From: a virus
Lineage: Duplodnaviria; Heunggongvirae; Uroviricota; Caudoviricetes
Strand: one strand, 5' to 3'
IMG/VR virus record: IMGVR_UViG_2563366982_000007
DNA length: 27,589 nt
Below are positions 4,895 to 16,368 of this stretch, one piece after another. The stretch's first letter is position 1. Each line of letters opens with the position of its first letter. The notes below the pieces were generated by a model. The model made no database searches and was not told the origin of the DNA. It was given only the letters and a program-made list of their open reading frames with translations. The position numbers were made by a program, and so were the translations under genes.

Positions 4895-7660
4895 ATGACG
4901 GCAGAGTACATCAGGGACTGGCAACAACCGCGCCACGCAGTGGGGCGTGAAGGAACGGGGATCCCCGCTCCTGAATCCGCGCTTTCCTCCTGGCTGGATG
5001 CCTACCGGGTAGAGAACGAGCGCCGCCAGGAAATGGCTGATGCGGCGTTCTCCGCAACGCCGCTGGGCAACCTGATTAATAAAAGCCTGGACGCACAGGA
5101 AAAACAGGACAAAACCATCACACTGGCAGGAGATGCCAGAAAACAGGCACGCGGCGCGGTGGATGAAGCCATGGCCTCGCTGCGCCTGCTGCCGTCCTAT
5201 CTGCGCGATCCGCTTATTCGCCACCTCTCCTTCCTGCGCAAAAAACAGGAAGCCGATCGTCAGAAAGGCAAAAAGAGCTGGCAGGCTGAACGCTACGCGC
5301 GCGGAAACCTGCGCAAAATATTCGAACGTCTGGAGCGCACCGATCACCGCTGGCTGACACAGGGTTATCGCTCCCTTGCCGGACGCGAACGCCTGGACGA
5401 TTTGCTTTACCTGCCGCAGCTCAACAAACACCAGATACAGACACTGGCCACCATGACGGCGGCGATGTTCAGCAGCACCTTCGAAAAACTCTGCGATGGC
5501 TTTGGCGCGACCGATGGCGAACTGACCATGGATGTAACGCTGAAGGCGTATCAGATGCTGGCCCGCATGGCGTTACACCTGCACGCCATGCCTCCACATT
5601 ATGACGCACTGACAACAGACAAAGACCGGAGGAACGAACCGGACACGGAGCTGCTGCCGGGCGCAATCCTTCGCCTGACCTGTGCAGAATGGTGGAAACG
5701 CAAACTGTGGCTGTTACGTTGCGAGTGGAGAGAAGAACAACTCCGCGCCGCCTGTCTGGTTTCCAGAAAAACATCGCCCTATCTGAGCCAGGACGCGTTA
5801 AGCGAGTTTCGCGCACAGCGCGAGAAAACACGCGATTTCCTGAAAAGTTTCATGCTGGAAAATGAAGACGGGTTCACGATTGATCTCGAGACAGTGTATT
5901 ACGCGGGAGTAAGTAACCCGGTTCACCGTAAGGCAGAAATGATGGCCACCATGAAGGGGCTGGAACTTCTGGCCGAAGCCCGTGGTGACAAAGCGGTGTT
6001 TCTGACTGTCACCTGCCCGTCAAAATACCACGCAACAACGGAGAACGGTCATCCGAACCCCAAATGGAACGGGGCCACCATGCGCGACTCCAGCGATTAC
6101 CTGGTTAACACGTTTTTTGCGGCGGTCCGCAAAAAACTGAACCGCGACGGCCTGCGCTGGTATGGCATCCGCACGGTGGAGCCTCACCATGACGGCACCG
6201 TGCACTGGCATATGATGGTCTTTGCTCATCCGGAAGAAATCGACAGCATCGTGGCCATCACCCGCGATATTGCCATTCAGGAAGATCGTCACGAACTGGG
6301 CGATGATATTACTCCGCGCTTTAAGGCGGAGTATGTCGACGGCTCAAAAGGCACACCAACCAGCTATATCGCGACCTACATCGGAAAAAACCTGGACAGC
6401 CGCGCCGTAGATGGCATCGACCCGAAAACGGGCAAGCCACGCGTTGACCACGAAACCGAAAAATCAATGGCCGAGAGCGTGGAGCGCGCCATTGGCTGGG
6501 CGCGTCTTCATCGGGTCCGCCAGTTCCAGTTCTTTGGCATCCCCTCCCGTCAGGTATGGCGTGAACTCCGCCGCCTTGCCAGCCAGATGGCACGCAACCC
6601 GGAAGGCCCGCAACGGCTGAAGGATGATGCAATGGATGCGGTACTCGCTGCCGCTGATGCCGGGTGTTTTGCCTCCTACATTGAAAAACAGGGCGGCGTA
6701 CTTGTTCCACGTAAAGACTACCTGATTCGCACCGCCTACGACCTCGCAGATGAGCTGAACGATTACGGCGAGCAGAGTGTACAGATTTACGGGATCTGGT
6801 CGCCGCTCATCGGGGAGTCTTCCCGCGTGTGCACGCACCCGGATAACTGGAAGCTGGTAAGACGTAAACCGGAAGCGGAAGACAGCGCCCGCGAAAATGG
6901 TTTTGACCTTCAGGGCGGCCCTGCCGCCCCTTGGACTCGTGGCAATAACTGTCCCCGTGTACAGGAAACGGACAACAACGGGACAGAACAGCCGGAAGAA
7001 CGGCCAGCACCGTGGCCGCAGCTTCCTGACGGCGTTGATGTGGATGAATGGATGCGCTCACTGAAACGGCAAGAACGCCGGGCGCTGATGCGTTCGCTGC
7101 GTGACAAACAGGCAAAAAACAGCAGTGATGAAATGCAGAGCTGGACACAGAGCCGCAAACAGCAGCGGCCTTTGCCTGATAACCACGAATTACTCGCTAA
7201 AGAATGGCGGGAATCTGCTGAATCTCTCGGCCTGCATATCGGTGAACAGCAGATGCAGCACCTGTTACGGGGCGGCAGCCTGTACGTTGACGGCAGCATC
7301 ATTGCACCGCAGGGATTTGAAATTGTACGCAAACCGGATACCCGCCCGGACAGCCGAATCACGCAGCTCTGGCAGCGCCTGAGCCGTAATCACGGCGTAA
7401 GCAGCACGGAGATCCGCCATAACCCGGTCGCCAGCTATCTGGAACAGCTGGGGGCATCAGACCCCGAAGCCGCCGCACGCATGGTATCCACACTTCAGCA
7501 GGACCAGAACACCATGAAAACCCCCGTTACCGTGCTTTCTGACATGCTGCGCGTCATCCGTGACGCAGAGCACGCACAGAGAATCAATGAAACCACTGAA
7601 CGCGCACGTCACAAGGCGGGTCTGTTGCAGGACAAAGGCAATAGCGAGAAGAAAAAATAA
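4895..7660 (+). CDS. A: Rolling-circle replication initiator (P2 gpA-like HUH endonuclease) with long C-terminal extension
   Basis: HUH-type motif TVHWHMMVFAH and paired active-site tyrosines in SYIATYIGKN. Position after the early operon matches P2 gene A. At 921 aa it is longer than P2 A as I recall it (about 760 aa). Confidence 0.85.
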   Translation: MTAEYIRDWQQPRHAVGREGTGIPAPESALSSWLDAYRVENERRQEMADAAFSATPLGNLINKSLDAQEKQDKTITLAGDARKQARGAVDEAMASLRLLPSYLRDPLIRHLSFLRKKQEADRQKGKKSWQAERYARGNLRKIFERLERTDHRWLTQGYRSLAGRERLDDLLYLPQLNKHQIQTLATMTAAMFSSTFEKLCDGFGATDGELTMDVTLKAYQMLARMALHLHAMPPHYDALTTDKDRRNEPDTELLPGAILRLTCAEWWKRKLWLLRCEWREEQLRAACLVSRKTSPYLSQDALSEFRAQREKTRDFLKSFMLENEDGFTIDLETVYYAGVSNPVHRKAEMMATMKGLELLAEARGDKAVFLTVTCPSKYHATTENGHPNPKWNGATMRDSSDYLVNTFFAAVRKKLNRDGLRWYGIRTVEPHHDGTVHWHMMVFAHPEEIDSIVAITRDIAIQEDRHELGDDITPRFKAEYVDGSKGTPTSYIATYIGKNLDSRAVDGIDPKTGKPRVDHETEKSMAESVERAIGWARLHRVRQFQFFGIPSRQVWRELRRLASQMARNPEGPQRLKDDAMDAVLAAADAGCFASYIEKQGGVLVPRKDYLIRTAYDLADELNDYGEQSVQIYGIWSPLIGESSRVCTHPDNWKLVRRKPEAEDSARENGFDLQGGPAAPWTRGNNCPRVQETDNNGTEQPEERPAPWPQLPDGVDVDEWMRSLKRQERRALMRSLRDKQAKNSSDEMQSWTQSRKQQRPLPDNHELLAKEWRESAESLGLHIGEQQMQHLLRGGSLYVDGSIIAPQGFEIVRKPDTRPDSRITQLWQRLSRNHGVSSTEIRHNPVASYLEQLGASDPEAAARMVSTLQQDQNTMKTPVTVLSDMLRVIRDAEHAQRINETTERARHKAGLLQDKGNSEKKK

Positions 7661-7840: not shown

Positions 7841-8962
7841 ATGGGCGACTTAGGTGGTATTCAGTCAGATTTAGCCCAACTAGTTAGACTGGTAATAACT
7901 GAACAGTATGATGACGTTCGGTTATATGTCGCTCGCTTGGTGCGTAAATATCGGGAAACTATGCCTGCTCTATCCGAGCAGCTTGATCTTTATCTACGAA
8001 ATAAACCGCAAAAGCCTGCACAAAGCCTGCGTAAGGTTACCGCACCAAAACAAGCGCTGCCTCAAACCATGCCTGTGGACGAGGAGTCAAGGCTTACCTT
8101 GCTTAAAGCACCAAATGAAAAGATTGTGAGCAAACCTCTACTGTCCAGTCAGATAGAAGACTCACTGGATCAAATTATTCTTGAGCGGAAGCACATCGAT
8201 CGCCTCAAGACTCTCGGCTTACAACCAACACGCTCTGCCATTTTTGTTGGCCCTCCGGGTGTAGGTAAAACACTTACGGCAAGCTGGTTAGCTCAGAAAT
8301 TAGGGGTTCCTTTTTACGTTCTTGATTTAACGGCAGTAATGAGCAGCTATCTGGGCAAAAGCGGAAATAACCTTCGGGCAGCTCTAGATTTTGCGAAGAA
8401 AGGGCCGTGCGTTCTTCTGTTAGATGAAATTGATTCAATCGCCAAAAAGAGAAGTGATGATTCTGATGTTGGAGAATTAAAAAGACTTGTTACCGTGATA
8501 CTCCAGGAGGTTGACGAATGGCCGTCTTCTAGTTTGCTACTTGCTGCAACTAACTTCGCTGAGTTGATTGATCCAGCACTATGGAGACGTTTTGATTTAG
8601 TGCTCAATTTTGAGAAGCCAGATAGCGAAAGTATTAAAGAAGCAATTAAACGCTTTTCGGGTCCCGACTACGCGATTTTTGCACGTTGGATAGATCTACT
8701 GGCTATTATGTTCAAAAATGAATCTTTTAGTAATATTGAGCGTTCTATCAACAAATTCCGACGTTCGGTCGCTTTAGGTATTTCCTCAGATGAAGAGTTG
8801 ATTGGGTCGTTCATTAAAGATGGTTTATCAGAATTAGACAGGAATGAACGTAAAGAAATTGCAGTTACTCTAAAAAGAAATTCTAAATTATCCCAGCATG
8901 CCATATCAGACTTAACCGGAGTCAGTAGGGATACAATTAGAAAATACAGTCAAAAAATGTAA
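7841..8962 (+). CDS. Classic AAA+ ATPase with C-terminal helix-turn-helix; candidate defense ATPase
   Basis: Walker A GPPGVGKT (about aa 137-144), Walker B LLLDEID (about aa 192-198), sensor-1-like AATN, arginine-finger-like WRRFD. C-terminal LSQHAISDLTGVSRDTIRKYS resembles an HTH. AT-rich codon usage unlike the flanking phage genes. Confidence 0.85.
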   Translation: MGDLGGIQSDLAQLVRLVITEQYDDVRLYVARLVRKYRETMPALSEQLDLYLRNKPQKPAQSLRKVTAPKQALPQTMPVDEESRLTLLKAPNEKIVSKPLLSSQIEDSLDQIILERKHIDRLKTLGLQPTRSAIFVGPPGVGKTLTASWLAQKLGVPFYVLDLTAVMSSYLGKSGNNLRAALDFAKKGPCVLLLDEIDSIAKKRSDDSDVGELKRLVTVILQEVDEWPSSSLLLAATNFAELIDPALWRRFDLVLNFEKPDSESIKEAIKRFSGPDYAIFARWIDLLAIMFKNESFSNIERSINKFRRSVALGISSDEELIGSFIKDGLSELDRNERKEIAVTLKRNSKLSQHAISDLTGVSRDTIRKYSQKM

Positions 8963-8985: not shown

Positions 8986-11211
8986 ATGGCGAAAACTAAT
9001 TTTCTGATTGGACGCGGCGAATTATTAACCAGCGATATTCCTGGTCCTAAAAGAGTGCCCGGAAAAGCTGAGGTTTATTCTCTTTACGAATCGAAACAAC
9101 GTTTATTGCCGCAAATTGCATCTACTATAGAAAATTTTGATGATTTACCCAGTCAGGCATGTCCTTATGATTATGCTGTGGCTAAGTTGACGTTGAATCC
9201 AAGCTATATTGCACGCTCTTTTTTTCCTGCAAAAATGCTTAAGTCTACCGGGTTAACGTCTATTGGCAGCAGGACGGTAAAAATTACGCCTCAAAGCTGG
9301 AAGCGAAAAGTTACTGTGTCAGAAGTAACTACGACACAAATGTTTGTTGCTGGTAAAAGAGAATCCTTCAAAGAGTTACCTCATTGGGTGTCAGAACTCA
9401 AAGAGTTTTCTGACGAAGCGATTGATTTTGCACGCATAGAACGGTTCGATGCCTATTTACCCGAAGAGCGTATTATTACCATTGGTGAGCAGGATTCTTC
9501 GTATTTTGAGGTTGGTGTTCATTTACTGCCAGATAATGAACAAGACTTGGTTCAGCAACAATTTGTTCAGTTTGCATCAAATTTGAACATCAAAGTACAT
9601 ACTTCATTAGCTTTTACCGCTGGTACATTATGGTTCGTGCCAATCCAGGCCGATAGAATTACTATTAGTAAGCTTGCGAAATTTACATTTGTACGAGTAA
9701 TAAGACCGGTTCCAAGATTGCGTGGGATTAGACCAATACAAAGGAACTACGGTCCTTTAGCTCAGTGTAAATTACCTGCTGAGGGCCCCGTATCTTCAGA
9801 AATAAAAGTTGCGATTCTTGATGGTGGTTTACCATCAGAGCACGCTATATCGCCATGGTTAAAATCCTATAGAGTTTTGGACGATCATGCAGAGGATGAT
9901 CCAGACGGTTTAGAGCATGGTTTAGCTGTGTCTTCAGCCTTTTTATTTGGACCAATAAGTAATAAATCGGAAGCGAAAAGACCATACTCTTATATTGATA
10001 ACTTAAGAGTTTTGGACAACAAGACCTGCCAAGAAGATCCGCTGGAACTATATCGAACTTTGGGCTTTATTGAAGAGGTATTGTTGTCTCGCCAGTATCA
10101 GTTTATCAATCTAAGTTTAGGTCCAGACCTACCAATTGAAGATACGGAAGTTCATGCATGGACTTCCGTTATTGATGATTTGTTAAGTGATGGTGAAACA
10201 TTAATGACTGTTGCTGTTGGCAACAATGGAGAAATGGATCGCAAGTCTGGTAATGCAAGAATTCAAGTACCAGCCGATTGCGTTAATGCTCTTGCTGTTG
10301 GTGCTTGTGATACAGTTAATGATACGGAATGGAAACGAGCACCATATAGCGCCATTGGGCCAGGCAGAAGTCCTGGCGTGATGAAACCGGATTTAGTTGC
10401 GTTTGGTGGTGACACAGACGAGTACTTTCATGTTTTAGGTAAAGGTAAGAAGCCTGTAATCATACCCCAGCTAGGAACAAGCTTTGCCTCTCCTTACGCC
10501 TTACGAGCAGCTGTTGGTGTTCGGGCAATTTTAGGGAACGATTTGAGCCTACTAGCAATCAAAGCTTTGTTAATTCATGCGTCAAAACAGCTTGATCATC
10601 CTTGTACAGAAGTTGGCTGGGGAAAACTGCCTGAAGACTTGAACGACATTATAGTCAGCCCTGATGGTGTTGCCCGTATCGTCTACCAAGGTGAATTGAA
10701 ACCAGGAAAATACTTACGCGCTTCTCTTCCAATACCTGAAGGTGGCTTGAAAGGTAGAATAAACTTAGCGGCAACTTTCTGTTATGCAACAACCACTGAT
10801 CCACAAGACCCAGCTTCCTATACAAAAGCTGGTTTGGAAGTGACATTCCGGCCAAATGATTCAAAAATCAAAGACGGAAAACAAAATGCTGAAACCAAGG
10901 GATTCTTTGAACTGGCCAAATATTCAACTGAAAGTGAGCGACGTTCTGACATGGGCAAATGGGAGACCGTCTTACATAATTCGAAGAACATGCTAGGTTC
11001 AACTCTAAAAAATCCTGTATTTGACATTCATTATAACGCTCGTGAGGCCGGTGCAAGCATAGCCAGCCATAAGGCAGAAAAAATCAAGTATGCTCTTATA
11101 ATTACCATTAAGGCATCAAAGCACCAAGACCTGTATAACGAAATTTTACGTACTTATAATCAGGTGCTCGTGCCAATTCAACCGCAAACATCAATTCCTA
11201 TTCGTTCGTAA
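8986..11211 (+). CDS. S8 family (subtilisin-like) serine peptidase, cytoplasmic, with N- and C-terminal accessory domains; candidate defense effector or sensor
   Basis: Catalytic triad in canonical S8 order and context: Asp in VAILDGG (about aa 279), His in EHGLAVS (about aa 311), oxyanion Asn in VGNNG (about aa 413), Ser in GTSFASPY (about aa 499). No N-terminal signal peptide. About 270 aa precede and about 230 aa follow the protease core. Starts 23 bp after the ATPase stop with RBS AAGGAG. Confidence 0.85.
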   Translation: MAKTNFLIGRGELLTSDIPGPKRVPGKAEVYSLYESKQRLLPQIASTIENFDDLPSQACPYDYAVAKLTLNPSYIARSFFPAKMLKSTGLTSIGSRTVKITPQSWKRKVTVSEVTTTQMFVAGKRESFKELPHWVSELKEFSDEAIDFARIERFDAYLPEERIITIGEQDSSYFEVGVHLLPDNEQDLVQQQFVQFASNLNIKVHTSLAFTAGTLWFVPIQADRITISKLAKFTFVRVIRPVPRLRGIRPIQRNYGPLAQCKLPAEGPVSSEIKVAILDGGLPSEHAISPWLKSYRVLDDHAEDDPDGLEHGLAVSSAFLFGPISNKSEAKRPYSYIDNLRVLDNKTCQEDPLELYRTLGFIEEVLLSRQYQFINLSLGPDLPIEDTEVHAWTSVIDDLLSDGETLMTVAVGNNGEMDRKSGNARIQVPADCVNALAVGACDTVNDTEWKRAPYSAIGPGRSPGVMKPDLVAFGGDTDEYFHVLGKGKKPVIIPQLGTSFASPYALRAAVGVRAILGNDLSLLAIKALLIHASKQLDHPCTEVGWGKLPEDLNDIIVSPDGVARIVYQGELKPGKYLRASLPIPEGGLKGRINLAATFCYATTTDPQDPASYTKAGLEVTFRPNDSKIKDGKQNAETKGFFELAKYSTESERRSDMGKWETVLHNSKNMLGSTLKNPVFDIHYNAREAGASIASHKAEKIKYALIITIKASKHQDLYNEILRTYNQVLVPIQPQTSIPIRS

Positions 11212-11224
11212 TCCTTCAAGACAT

Positions 11225-11256
11225 AATGCCCCTCAATTTGAGGGGCATTTCTTTGC
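11225..11256 (+). terminator. Rho-independent terminator after the peptidase gene
   Basis: Perfect 10-bp stem AATGCCCCTC / GAGGGGCATT with loop AATTT, followed by a T-rich run; begins 14 nt after the stop codon. Confidence 0.6.
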
Positions 11257-11608
11257 ACAAAAGTGCACAAATTTGCACAATTTTTTTGAACGACTTTTTG
11301 CCCTTCCGGCCCGCATGGCGGCTGGATCCGTCAAGGATCCGTGCGTGCACAAAAAACGCGTTTTTCCTGCGCGCAGGTGACGGGGGAACAGCCCGCGTTT
11401 CAGGGGGTAAACAGCATTCCCTGAACGATGTCGCAGAGACACAACAGAATGGCCATATTTCTCACGCTGAGCATGAAAAAGGCGTGAGGGCTTTTGATTT
11501 GATGGGGTGAAAGGTAAGGCCGTCAAAATCGCACTGAGGCAGCGAGAACATACAGTCAACGCGGTGGAATTGCGTAAGTGAAGTGGTCAACAAAAACTGG
11601 CCACCGAG

Positions 11609-12756
<1,148 letters not shown>

Positions 12757-13031
12757 TATGGCACCTGTGTTGTTCTGAGGTGAGCATATCACCTCTGTTC
12801 AGGTGGCCAAATTCAGTAAACCACTTCAAAGAGTCTGACCGTCGATGGTGGCGATAAACTGGAAGGCGTCGTGAAATTATCTGATTGATACAGGAGCTGG
12901 AGAGCCGGGGCATAAATTTTTTATGCCCCGGCGAAGCAGCAGACAAGCGAAGCGCGTCAGCGATACGGCACCTTGCCGACCATACTTCATAAGTGCAAAA
13001 TACGAGCAAAGAAATCAATGGAGGCTGTCTT

Positions 13032-13556
13032 ATGGTCATTAATTACAAGCAGTTAAGAGAAAAACGGGAGCAGGTAAAGGAGAGCTTTCGCCGCAATGAA
13101 GATCTGACCCCGCTTGTACGCCTTGCCCAGGGCATTGTTGATGCTTATGAAATCTCGCTGGAGCTGCCATCACAGACCTGGACAGATAGCGACGGTAATC
13201 GCCAGCATTACGTTTCATGCGGACTGGAAGCAGCCGAAGGATTTCGCAGAATGCCTTTATCCCAGATCCCTGCCGCTACCCCCAAAGCACGGGGCAGCAA
13301 TGATGAGCGAAAACTGACTTTTAGTATTGAAACGGTGGTTGACGACACACCTGGCGAAGTCGCGTTCGTGCACACGCCTGTTTCGATCGCAATGTATAAC
13401 GATGAAATACAGGTTCGCGTTAATAATAATATCGTGCCACTTAAAGAAGGTAATTCACCCTACACCACCGTTTGTGAAGCCATTCAATATTACGTTCTCT
13501 CTGAAATTGATAATCTCAAGCCTGACGGCACCCAGAAAATGGTTCAACTCTGGTAA
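13032..13556 (+). CDS. Hypothetical protein (about 174 aa), orphan gene between the IS and portal gene Q, convergent with Q
   Basis: ORF with RBS GGAGG before the ATG at 13032 (the track ORF starts at 12993). No recognisable motifs. Ends at a shared bidirectional terminator. Confidence 0.5.
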   Translation: MVINYKQLREKREQVKESFRRNEDLTPLVRLAQGIVDAYEISLELPSQTWTDSDGNRQHYVSCGLEAAEGFRRMPLSQIPAATPKARGSNDERKLTFSIETVVDDTPGEVAFVHTPVSIAMYNDEIQVRVNNNIVPLKEGNSPYTTVCEAIQYYVLSEIDNLKPDGTQKMVQLW

Positions 13557-13588
13557 AAAGGACAGCCCCATCACGGGGCTGTTTTTTC
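13555..13588. terminator. Bidirectional intrinsic terminator between the orphan gene and Q
   Basis: Stem ACAGCCCC / GGGGCTGT with loop ATCAC, flanked by an A-run on one side and a T6 run on the other. Overlaps the Q stop codon. Confidence 0.6.
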
Positions 13589-14617
13589 ATCAAGAAGAGC
13601 ATAAGAGTTAAAACGGATCACCTCTTCGCCAAGCCAGTCATTGATGTGCTTCATAGCCTCCATGACGGGCATCAGCTCGTTAATTGCGTAAACCCGCGCT
13701 GCCTTCTCCACATCGCCAAACGCACTTTTTTCGCCCGGCATCGCCCCCATCAGTTGCGGCGGAACGCGGTGCGCAGCCAGCACATCATCACGGGATGCCG
13801 CCTTAACATTCATGAATTCATCTTTTGCGGTGATCTGCTGGAACGGCAAAATTTGCACCCCCTCTTTGCCCCCGTTGGGCGCATGAATGAGCACGTTTTT
13901 AAACGCACCACCACCACGTGCCCCCTGTAGCGTTTCTTTCAGGGAGTCCATGCTTTCGCGGTTTACCTGCGCTGCACCGATGTAGATAATGCACCCGGCG
14001 TGGGATCCGTTGTCGTAGTACAGTTTTCTGAACATGTCCGCCGAATGAGAAAGGCTGGCCGAGAGTAATGCGCCAAGATATTCCGGCATGCCGTAGATTT
14101 CCTGGTTAATATCCGGATTCATCAGGTGGCACACTTTGCCAGGACGAAACTGAAACGCGTCCTTGCCATCCTGCACATACCACCATGATTCAAGATCGCT
14201 TCCGCGTCGCATGTATTTCGCCAGGGCGTGCCGTAATTTAAGCGGTTCGCCGAGCATATTGCTTCGAAGCTCAAGGAATGCGTTACCGAACACAAACCAG
14301 TCCAGCGCCAGCGCCGAGAAATCCTGCCGGGAAAGCAGCGGGTGCGGGATGTAGCAACCGAGTAATACATTGCGCTTAAAGTAAAGCGCAGACTGATGCC
14401 AGGACGTTTGCCGGGCTGCTCTTGCCAGACCGTACCAGTCCACCGGGGTTTCATACCACCGCCCGTTATCAGCACAGTACATATTGTCCAGCAGGTCATG
14501 CCCGGTCAGGCGATAAGGACCATCAAATGTGAATGCACTGAGCGATGATTCTTTCCTGAGCGCATCAGCGAGATCAATGCGTGAACTCATGCGCACTTTT
14601 TTATTTTTTCTGCTCAT
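13571..14617 (-). CDS. Q: Portal protein (P2 gpQ-like)
   Basis: 348 aa (P2 Q is about 344 aa). Lies immediately downstream of, and overlapping by 1 nt, the large terminase gene on the minus strand, as in P2. Confidence 0.85.
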   Translation of the reverse strand: MSRKNKKVRMSSRIDLADALRKESSLSAFTFDGPYRLTGHDLLDNMYCADNGRWYETPVDWYGLARAARQTSWHQSALYFKRNVLLGCYIPHPLLSRQDFSALALDWFVFGNAFLELRSNMLGEPLKLRHALAKYMRRGSDLESWWYVQDGKDAFQFRPGKVCHLMNPDINQEIYGMPEYLGALLSASLSHSADMFRKLYYDNGSHAGCIIYIGAAQVNRESMDSLKETLQGARGGGAFKNVLIHAPNGGKEGVQILPFQQITAKDEFMNVKAASRDDVLAAHRVPPQLMGAMPGEKSAFGDVEKAARVYAINELMPVMEAMKHINDWLGEEVIRFNSYALLDEKTAP

Positions 14618-16368
14618 CAGAACTCCATAACCGTGAAACGCTCGTTTTCTCCTTCGCCGCCAATTGGTTCGTTAATGACAGCAAGCATGGTTGCCCACGC
14701 AAGGTCGCCGTGGCTGATCCCCCTCGCGCGGTCCGTTTCGTAAGTGATAAAGCCGCCCGGTGTTTTCACCTTACGCACGGCGTTAAAGGCTGCGACCAGC
14801 TCGCGTTCGGCGCGATCGTATTCCCACCGCCCGGCACGCATTATTTGCAGCATTTTCAGTACCAGCGACCGTTTTGATGACAGCGTGAAGGTGTACGGAA
14901 TAGCAGCAGGGAAAAACCGTTTCACTATCTGATAAACAGCCTCCCCGTTCCCGCCTGTCACATCAATGCCGATGTGTTCCACGTTGTAGCGACACGTGAA
15001 CTCTTCAATGACTCTGGCCTGTTCTTCAAACTCCAGCCCCTGAACGCGTCGCGTCTCCACCGTTCGAAAACGGCCGCCAGGAACAGCCGGAGGAACCACC
15101 ACGGACACAGCGCCGCTGTCGCCGTTTCCACTGCTGCCGTTTGCGTCATACCCAATCCATACCGGACGATTCCCCATCGGGCGGGGAGCAAAAGGTTTCC
15201 AGTCTTTCCAGTCGTCGTATCCGTCAACACCGCAGCCAATCAGGATATTCAGGTTAAATGCCGATTCCCCTTCGCGGACAAACTCACACATATAGAGATT
15301 GAGGAACTCGTCTTCGGTGTTTTCATCACGAATTTCGTCGATATCGGTGTGTTTCCAGCCGTGATTAACCACATCTTCCAGCGTGACAATTTGCCGCCAC
15401 GTCCGGTCAGGGCAGATAAGCCCGTTATGCAGCGTTTTCCAGTCCACAGAAAAACGCTGGCGTTTATGCGAGGCCTTTTTCTCGTTCCAGCGGTCGCCGT
15501 TCCAGTAGGCGTATGCCTCGTGCGTTTCGGTGGATGGCGTGGAGAAGTAGGTGCGCCGCAATCCGCTGAGGGTTGCCATAGCGCCAGCCACCTTGCGCAG
15601 TTCAGCAAAGCGACTGACCCAGAAAAATTCATCAAAATAAAAATTGCCCGTATAGGACTGCGCCGACGCAGCAGAAGTGCCGAGAAAATGCAGCTCTGCG
15701 CCGTTGGAGAGGATGATTTTATCGCCCCCTTTCAGCTCCACATCAACTTCAGCCGCAGCCTTCTGAATAATGCTTTTAAACTGGAACGCCTGACGACGCG
15801 ACGCAGACAAAAAAATCTGGTTACGCTGGTAAGGTTGCGCCACATCGTCACGCAGCGCCATCAGCAGTGCTTCCTGTGCAAAATACCAGGTCGCGCCAAT
15901 CTGTCGGGATTTCAGGATCATCCTGTTACGTATCCCGGCTTCCCTGCAAAGGGTCAGGGAGTCAAACCAGCCCCGCTGATGCCACTCCAGCCTGCTGATG
16001 ATTTTTTCCCGCAGTGCGGCAATCTGTTCCGGCGTGAAATGATTTTTGAGTTTTTTCGCCCGGCCTTTCTTTCCTGTGGCCGTCGCATCCGGCTGGCCAT
16101 CATGCATTTTTTTAAGCTGCCGGGTCAGCAGGTCTATTTCCTTAAAGTCACCGCCTGTTTTATTCTGTTTTTCAGTAAGCTGGATGAGGCGCGCATCGAT
16201 GGACTGCGTGACACGCTGCACGGGTGGCGTTTCATCCCACTGGTCGCGTTTTTTCCACGCATAAATCGTGTTCGGGTTTATTCCCATCAGACGTGATATT
16301 TCTGCGGGCGGATAACCCTGCCAGTAAAGTTGCCGCGCACGCTGGCGCACAAAAGCGTCCTGAATCAT
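14617..16368 (-). CDS. P: Terminase large (ATPase) subunit (P2 gpP-like)
   Basis: 583 aa, with an ATPase region and a nuclease region. Position and orientation, divergent from O-N-M-L, are exactly as in P2. Confidence 0.88.
   Translation of the reverse strand: MIQDAFVRQRARQLYWQGYPPAEISRLMGINPNTIYAWKKRDQWDETPPVQRVTQSIDARLIQLTEKQNKTGGDFKEIDLLTRQLKKMHDGQPDATATGKKGRAKKLKNHFTPEQIAALREKIISRLEWHQRGWFDSLTLCREAGIRNRMILKSRQIGATWYFAQEALLMALRDDVAQPYQRNQIFLSASRRQAFQFKSIIQKAAAEVDVELKGGDKIILSNGAELHFLGTSAASAQSYTGNFYFDEFFWVSRFAELRKVAGAMATLSGLRRTYFSTPSTETHEAYAYWNGDRWNEKKASHKRQRFSVDWKTLHNGLICPDRTWRQIVTLEDVVNHGWKHTDIDEIRDENTEDEFLNLYMCEFVREGESAFNLNILIGCGVDGYDDWKDWKPFAPRPMGNRPVWIGYDANGSSGNGDSGAVSVVVPPAVPGGRFRTVETRRVQGLEFEEQARVIEEFTCRYNVEHIGIDVTGGNGEAVYQIVKRFFPAAIPYTFTLSSKRSLVLKMLQIMRAGRWEYDRAERELVAAFNAVRKVKTPGGFITYETDRARGISHGDLAWATMLAVINEPIGGEGENERFTVMEF

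Follow-up and report, generated by a model that had tools for sequence, protein, structure and literature searches.

Phage morons, as Hendrix and Juhala use the term, include bor of lambda, stx of Stx phages, and the P2 genes old, tin and fun(Z). The site between the late antiterminator gene Q and the holin gene is occupied by stx in Stx phages and by other non-defence morons. In P2, nothing is present between cosL (1-19) and the portal gene Q (187-1221), and the original prediction was correct that P2 has no gene in this gap.

The interval between gpA and gpQ of P2-like phages is enriched for antiviral genes (Rousset et al. 2022; PMC9122126). In Table S5A of that study, WP_000236495, the protein encoded by the gene discussed here, is entered at least 167 times, and it stands there as the final “hypothetical” in gpA-gpQ arrangements. 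The protein appears there with DUF4760, StbA and Plasmid_stab_B and also with AAA/HTH_50 and Peptidase_S8, and loci with AAA/HTH_50 and Peptidase_S8 that do not carry WP_000236495 are listed as well. The gene is neither tested nor discussed in that paper or by Moura de Sousa et al. 2026 (PMC13586616), and a literature search with the accession, the PHROG identifier and the peptide returned the table row in Rousset et al. 2022 as its only mention.

The stretch of DNA analyzed here, termed the window, comprises 27,589 nucleotides (IMG/VR record IMGVR_UViG_2563366982_000007) and carries the left portion of a prophage of the P2 family. Gene A for replication (Pfam Phage_GPA) is located at 4895-7660. 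The gpA-to-cos hotspot holds a two-gene operon on the plus strand, IetA (7841-8962) and IetS (8986-11211), recognized by PADLOC with E values of 1e-77 and 1.1e-51, respectively, and this operon is followed by a terminator-like hairpin at about 11226-11250. A conserved non-coding block interrupted by an insertion sequence separates the operon from an open reading frame (ORF) of 174 codons at 13032-13556 on the plus strand. The portal gene Q (13571-14617; Pfam Phage_portal) and the terminase gene P (14617-16368) are encoded on the minus strand. In one other locus (L050, IMGVR_UViG_2541047944_000005, about 9590-13300), P is matched at 11684-13297 rather than 9589-11337, a shift of about 2 kb relative to all the other loci, and extra DNA may therefore have been inserted in one of these two genes or in the gap that separates them.

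The description of the ORF as well formed, preceded by a strong ribosome binding site, and placed between the insertion sequence and Q in convergence with the packaging genes is borne out by the gene call. The ORF begins with ATG and ends with TAA, and the sequence GGAGG is present at 13020-13024, 7 nt before the ATG. The start at 13032 is preferred over an upstream GTG at 12993, because all homologues begin with M-[VTS]-[IV]-[NT]-Y. The product of 19.8 kDa (pI 5.0) is identical to RefSeq WP_000236495.1, which is annotated as “hypothetical protein”. It belongs to phrog_5091 of PHROGs v4, a family that has no functional annotation, and matches it over the full length (E 1.4e-67, 227.5 bits, residues 1-168 against positions 1-164 of the 164-position profile).

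The distribution of the gene was mapped with a query that covers 12800-13700 of the window and includes the 3′ end of Q. At a query coverage of at least 80%, the ORF is carried by 397 of the 1,157 E. coli records that match the query, and the ORF region is 95-100% identical in 397 complete E. coli genomes and four sequenced phages. Most of the non-carrier records give a two-piece match that spans only 257 bp, so the backbone block joins Q directly in the non-carriers. The ORF is present in four of 16 phage records, one of which comes from an O25b:H4-ST131 host. It is absent from P88, 520873, 500465-2, 503458, Chuche, Shae_phiSM and P88_4B11 and from about 760 prophages; the prophages without it are otherwise near-identical and P88-like, and make up about two thirds. 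The comparison across related prophages that the original prediction had called for thus yields a single site with defined breakpoints, and the ORF is, as judged from these alignments, a presence/absence cassette in prophages of Xuanwuvirus (P88-like Peduoviridae of the P2 family). A gene for virion structure or packaging would be expected in all functional members of the lineage, yet the ORF is missing from P88, six further sequenced phages and about 760 prophages, and searches of Pfam and PHROG returned no structural annotation for it. These results support its assignment as an accessory gene rather than a structural or packaging gene.

The ends of the inserted segment were obtained by aligning ORF-bearing loci (M1/5 and PhiR44_2) with the ORF-less SE11 locus. 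On the left, the homology between ORF-bearing and ORF-less sequences (SE11, L009) stops after ...GCGAAGCGCGTCAG, at position 12960 of the window, and the TCA at this point is the stop codon of Q in the ORF-less phages. On the right, the homology restarts within roughly the last 10 codons of Q. Both breakpoints therefore delimit a cassette, at about 12961-13600, that carries the ORF together with a leader of 71 nt, a new terminator and a new end of Q. The alternative 3′ end of Q that is linked to the cassette (13571-13604, minus strand) encodes a protein terminating in ALLDEKTAP, as opposed to ALLDTQPTS in the ORF-less prophages. Recombination with another P2-like phage, and not a simple insertion, appears to have brought in the cassette. 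We also note that the last six residues of Q are DEKTAP with the cassette and DTQPTS without it, and that synonymous sites in the preceding codons differ too. The GC content of the ORF is 47.6%, compared to 52.9% for Q, 54.0% for P, 57.3% for gpA, and 41-42% for IetAS, so that its difference from the backbone is modest.

The ORF and Q, on opposite strands, have stop codons 14 nt apart and are thus convergent; this arrangement is found in all 41 IMG/VR loci, at a distance of about 20 bp. Between them lies a rho-independent terminator at 13555-13590 that would serve both the ORF and the P-Q late operon. Its GC-rich hairpin (13562-13582) is preceded by an A-run and followed by a T-run, and the stop codon of Q is positioned within the loop. 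The hairpin folds with -21.5 kcal/mol (z -5.1) on the plus strand and -18.2 kcal/mol (z -4.5) on the minus strand; the consensus scan calls a terminator on the minus strand only, and the call on the plus strand derives from the fold together with the T-run in the sequence. The expectation that the gene has its own bidirectional terminator is in agreement with these folds on both strands and with the scan match on the minus strand.

At the other end of the cassette, the cassette-specific 5′ leader (12961-13031, plus strand) contains the ribosome binding site and a promoter-like element, in which a -35 hexamer TTGCCG (12973-12978) is separated by a 17-nt spacer from a -10 hexamer CAAAAT (12996-13001). 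The consensus scan found no promoter above threshold in the leader, and the element is therefore treated only as a candidate sigma-70 promoter. Upstream of a 60%-identical homologue (in L048), TTGTCT-N17-CAAAAT is seen by eye at a matching distance from the start codon, within diverged surroundings.

The backbone on the left of the cassette is kept with wholly different cargo in PhiR44_2 and SE11. The non-coding block is also conserved in P88 and related phages, and on this basis the prophage is assigned to the genus Xuanwuvirus. In the window, this cos-proximal block is interrupted by ISEc52, a 1250-bp element of the IS3 family at 11579-12828 on the minus strand, flanked by a 3-bp target duplication, AAG (11576-11578 and 12829-12831). 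At this site of the block, no insertion sequence occurs in any of 5,426 complete E. coli genomes. An IS-free version of the prophage is present in E. coli M1/5 (L001), where the gap from IetS to the ORF is a 567-bp conserved non-coding block with hairpins of its own. A perfect 13-bp hairpin, GCCGGGGCATAAA/TTTATGCCCCGGC, is situated at 12904-12932 in the conserved backbone upstream of the cassette; it folds with -30.3 and -29.3 kcal/mol on the two strands (z -7.2 and -8.4) and is kept in SE11 and PhiR44_2. In the ORF-less phages, Q ends about 25 nt before this hairpin, whose stem is not followed by a U-tract. The hairpin may be the Q terminator of the ORF-less phages or part of a packaging signal. 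A search of 11150-13700 against Rfam gave no RNA family.

By synteny with P2, it is plausible that cos is located within the conserved non-coding block. The 19-nt cos sequences of P2 and 186 do not occur in the window at up to 3 mismatches, the best matches having 5-6 mismatches at scattered positions, and no significant match was obtained when the P2 cos region was compared with the intergenic block by blastn. The absence of these 19-nt cohesive ends, also at 11226-11578 and 12829-12960 on either side of ISEc52, suggests that cos may be different in this lineage. The GenBank record of P88_4B11 (LR595891; Xuanwuvirus) is linearized at the equivalent of 11298/11299 of the window, which gives the only positional hint of cos but is not in itself proof of it. 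Placement of the ORF between cos and Q, as first proposed, thus stands as plausible from the gene order in P2, while the P2 and 186 19-mers themselves are missing from the window. If the block holds terminase recognition sequences, ISEc52 could impair the packaging of the prophage.

The gene had initially been regarded as an orphan. This is only partly correct: an exhaustive hidden Markov model (HMM) search retrieves a family of 87 representative clusters at E ≤ 1e-3, of which about 60 are full-length at 155-175 aa. The search extends phrog_5091 to relatives of about 25-30% identity, the full-length remote relatives covering 22-34%. Two motifs characterize the family, AYExSLxLPxxTWxDxxGxxxxYV and FxIxTVxDDxP, and the DD pair of the latter is missing in remote members. 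Named members originate from E. coli, Salmonella, Trabulsiella, Serratia, Pectobacterium, Xenorhabdus, Sodalis and Morganella, and all are annotated as hypothetical.

The relatives are found at several sites in phage genomes. The most frequent is the stretch from the late antiterminator gene Q to the holin gene, in three lambdoid prophage types; others are located between the lysis genes and terminase, and inside or just before the baseplate cluster of myoviruses. In Pectobacterium versatile (CP086369; L058, 4747-6359), the end of a P2-like prophage carries a remote homologue directly past ogr, at a distance of 12 bp, with a HicA/HicB toxin-antitoxin pair behind it. In another locus (L006), a HicA gene and a DUF1902 gene lie just upstream of the homologue. 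The 174-aa members of the P0026 subfamily (L061 and L062, 5001-5525) are situated in the chromosome between a choline-sulfatase/OpuAC operon and an epimerase gene, with no recognizable phage genes, and may be left over from a prophage or have been domesticated. Across the contexts of the relatives, no neighbor is conserved. A 212/213-aa neighbor shared by two loci (L007 and L008) was considered as a partner gene and rejected, since it is a minor tail protein of the backbone (phrog_1924). The apparent domain fusions in longer members were likewise discarded as mis-called N-termini. On the evidence of these contexts, the family behaves as a mobile, single-gene moron across prophages of Enterobacterales.

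The AlphaFold model of the protein has a pLDDT of 81. The product is predicted to be a soluble, acidic alpha+beta protein, with two N-terminal helices, an antiparallel sheet and a C-terminal helix. Neither a signal peptide nor a membrane segment is seen in the sequence, and no catalytic motif is recognizable. Across 57 sequences, the invariant or near-invariant positions are S42, L43, Y39, L45, W50, Y60, V61, F97 and T101, which belong mostly to a hydrophobic and aromatic core. Pfam and NCBIfam scans of the ORF, like Pfam searches with 57 family members, gave nothing consistent. No family of PADLOC-DB 2.0 was matched by HMM search at E ≤ 0.1, a profile search of the PDB returned nothing, and hhalign of P2 Tin with the ORF gave a probability of 0.3%. 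Designed helical repeat proteins, which a PDB sequence search reported at E 2.7e-7, were rejected because this score is the sum of three repeat matches of 8-11 bits, each with E above 2. The homology and fold searches yielded no informative match for the protein; the small alpha+beta protein-binding modules that come closest are the FP domain of PI31/Fbxo7, Imm52, T3SS/T6SS chaperones, AcrIIA11 and a fragment of P1 DarA.

We consider it probable that the ORF is an autonomous single-gene moron at the junction of the block and Q, and that its product is a binder engaged in phage conflict. The proposed unit would be a small transcription unit, made up of the candidate sigma-70 promoter, the strong ribosome binding site, the 174-aa ORF and the bidirectional terminator, and it sits where the cos-proximal non-coding block of P88-like prophages meets the 3′ end of Q. 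The gene is presumably dispensable to the phage and is independent of the adjacent gpA-to-cos defence hotspot, occupied by IetAS in the window, and members of its family move between the classic moron sites of unrelated temperate phages. Its presence or absence at one site with defined breakpoints argues for a moron, as does the promoter-like element that is kept in the 60%-identical lineage, and from this promoter the gene may be expressed in the lysogen. The protein would act stoichiometrically rather than enzymatically, by binding another protein, which is consistent with conserved positions that are mostly those of a hydrophobic and aromatic core. It could exclude a competitor, as P2 Tin does, or neutralize a host defence. 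A role in phage conflict is plausible, and it is the most likely single category because of the location of the gene. On the other hand, the promoter remains below the scan threshold, PADLOC gives no match, one relative is present in a non-phage chromosomal context, and morons at such sites are often unrelated to phage conflict. The relatives in lambdoid phages and myoviruses are moreover co-oriented with late genes, which could point to a lytic-cycle role. It is a more tentative proposal, which we consider possible but would not presume, that the ORF founds an unrecognized single-protein family of phage conflict, that is, a mobile moron that has no relative of solved fold and occupies a second insertion site. 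Should this be so, its members could be exclusion proteins that poison a protein of the competitor, or inhibitors of host defence.

Another explanation is a role in lysogenic conversion, in which the moron would alter host physiology or virulence with no involvement in phage conflict. The preferred site of the relatives, from antiterminator gene Q to the holin gene, is also that of stx and of non-defence morons, and the ORF is widespread in human-associated E. coli. However, Pfam, NCBIfam and the sequence itself show neither toxin nor effector domains, and neither a signal peptide nor a transmembrane segment; the protein is small, cytoplasmic and devoid of a recognizable domain, and the interval in which it lies is enriched for antiviral genes (PMC9122126). 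We regard this explanation as unlikely.

A role as a late lytic accessory appears rather improbable. The protein would in this case be packaged in the virion and injected, or would aid or protect portal and terminase, for instance by shielding them from defences that sense either one. A DarA-like function would consist of the protection of incoming DNA. The ORF does abut the portal gene, and its lambdoid and myovirus relatives lie inside late units, in the same orientation as lysis, terminase or baseplate genes. Yet the ORF itself and the late P-Q operon converge and are kept apart by the insulating terminator, no Ogr-type TGT-N12-ACA element is found upstream by eye, and two thirds of the lineage do not carry the gene. 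The match to P1 DarA is no better than those to a dozen unrelated folds.

Much less of the evidence accommodates the view that the ORF is a third or former component of IetA/IetS, the defence system of AAA ATPase and S8 peptidase described by Gao et al. 2020, split off by the insertion sequence. The original prediction had raised a former link of the ORF with this ATPase-peptidase module. The two are encoded on the same strand within the same gpA-to-Q interval, and the trio of AAA/HTH_50, Peptidase_S8 and WP_000236495 occurs in some genomes. Nevertheless, the 567 bp of backbone with its hairpins lies between them even where the insertion sequence is missing, and IetAS accompanies the ORF in only one of the 41 IMG/VR loci. 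Loci with IetAS and no ORF exist, the ORF matches no Iet model of PADLOC, and Iet genes never adjoin the remote homologues. In 32 loci that extend to the end of gene A, the stretch from A to the ORF was grouped at ≥85% identity with mutual coverage of ≥80%, which gave 19 classes; the cargo upstream changes while the ORF stays in place. This distribution shows the gene to be independent of IetAS. The proposed link is not supported by these comparisons, and the assignment of the ORF as an Iet component, which we hold to be highly improbable, can be taken as effectively refuted already.

These loci also qualify the earlier suggestion that the ORF is a further cargo gene of the hotspot. It is an accessory gene, missing from about two thirds of the prophages, but it lies outside the variable slot, at a fixed site on the Q side. 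With respect to the gpA-to-gpQ hotspot as defined previously (PMC9122126; PMC13586616), the ORF is inside the interval but has a site of its own, a second and fixed one between the non-coding block and Q. The interval, which is usually taken as one hotspot, thus splits into a variable cargo slot and a fixed slot beside Q, and the latter is filled by the ORF in about a third of P88-like prophages.

Hardly credible is a spurious or decaying, functionless ORF, for which one could cite the sole annotation as “hypothetical” and two disrupted copies among the 41 in IMG/VR (a frameshift by a 1-bp deletion in L047, 8001-8521, and a premature truncation at 139 codons in L049, 912-1331), since conservation has already refuted it: dN/dS values of about 0.1 are reached with dS of up to 0.23, 60% amino acid identity is kept next to a 74%-identical Q, and about 60 full-length clusters of a remote family have motifs in common. 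The confident AlphaFold model likewise counts against it. In comparison with 14 alleles, dN/dS ranges from 0.03 to 0.29 and is typically 0.07-0.12, which indicates that the ORF is under purifying selection, and 39 of the 41 IMG/VR copies are intact. A 60-63% identical form is encoded at the same position beside the 74%-identical Q in L048 and L049 (Salmonella-type proteins P0008-P0010). The conservation thus identifies 13032-13556 as a real gene, beyond a chance ORF.

The ORF is present in hundreds of complete E. coli genomes, and its relatives occur in lambdoid, P2-like and other myovirus prophages. A common, selected and mobile gene that lacks a domain, a structural relative and a literature is consequently a cheap and well-defined candidate for defence and anti-defence screens. 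Natural isogenic contrasts exist for this purpose, for example with PhiR44_2 or vB_EcoM-705R2 on one side and P88 on the other. Negative screens would leave the ORF as one more hypothetical moron.

Comparison with described morons places the gene among ordinary members of the class, and it is already catalogued as a sequence. No sequence or profile similarity connects it with bor, stx, old, tin or fun(Z). In P2, old and tin are located on the other side of cos and the gap from cos to Q is empty, in contrast to the gene-filled junction of the P88-like prophages that carry the cassette. Like the known morons, the ORF is self-contained, with a candidate promoter and a terminator, lies between backbone genes, is variably present, has a lower GC content and is apparently dispensable, and its relatives are found at the stx site between antiterminator gene Q and the holin gene as well as in the gap between the lysis genes and terminase.
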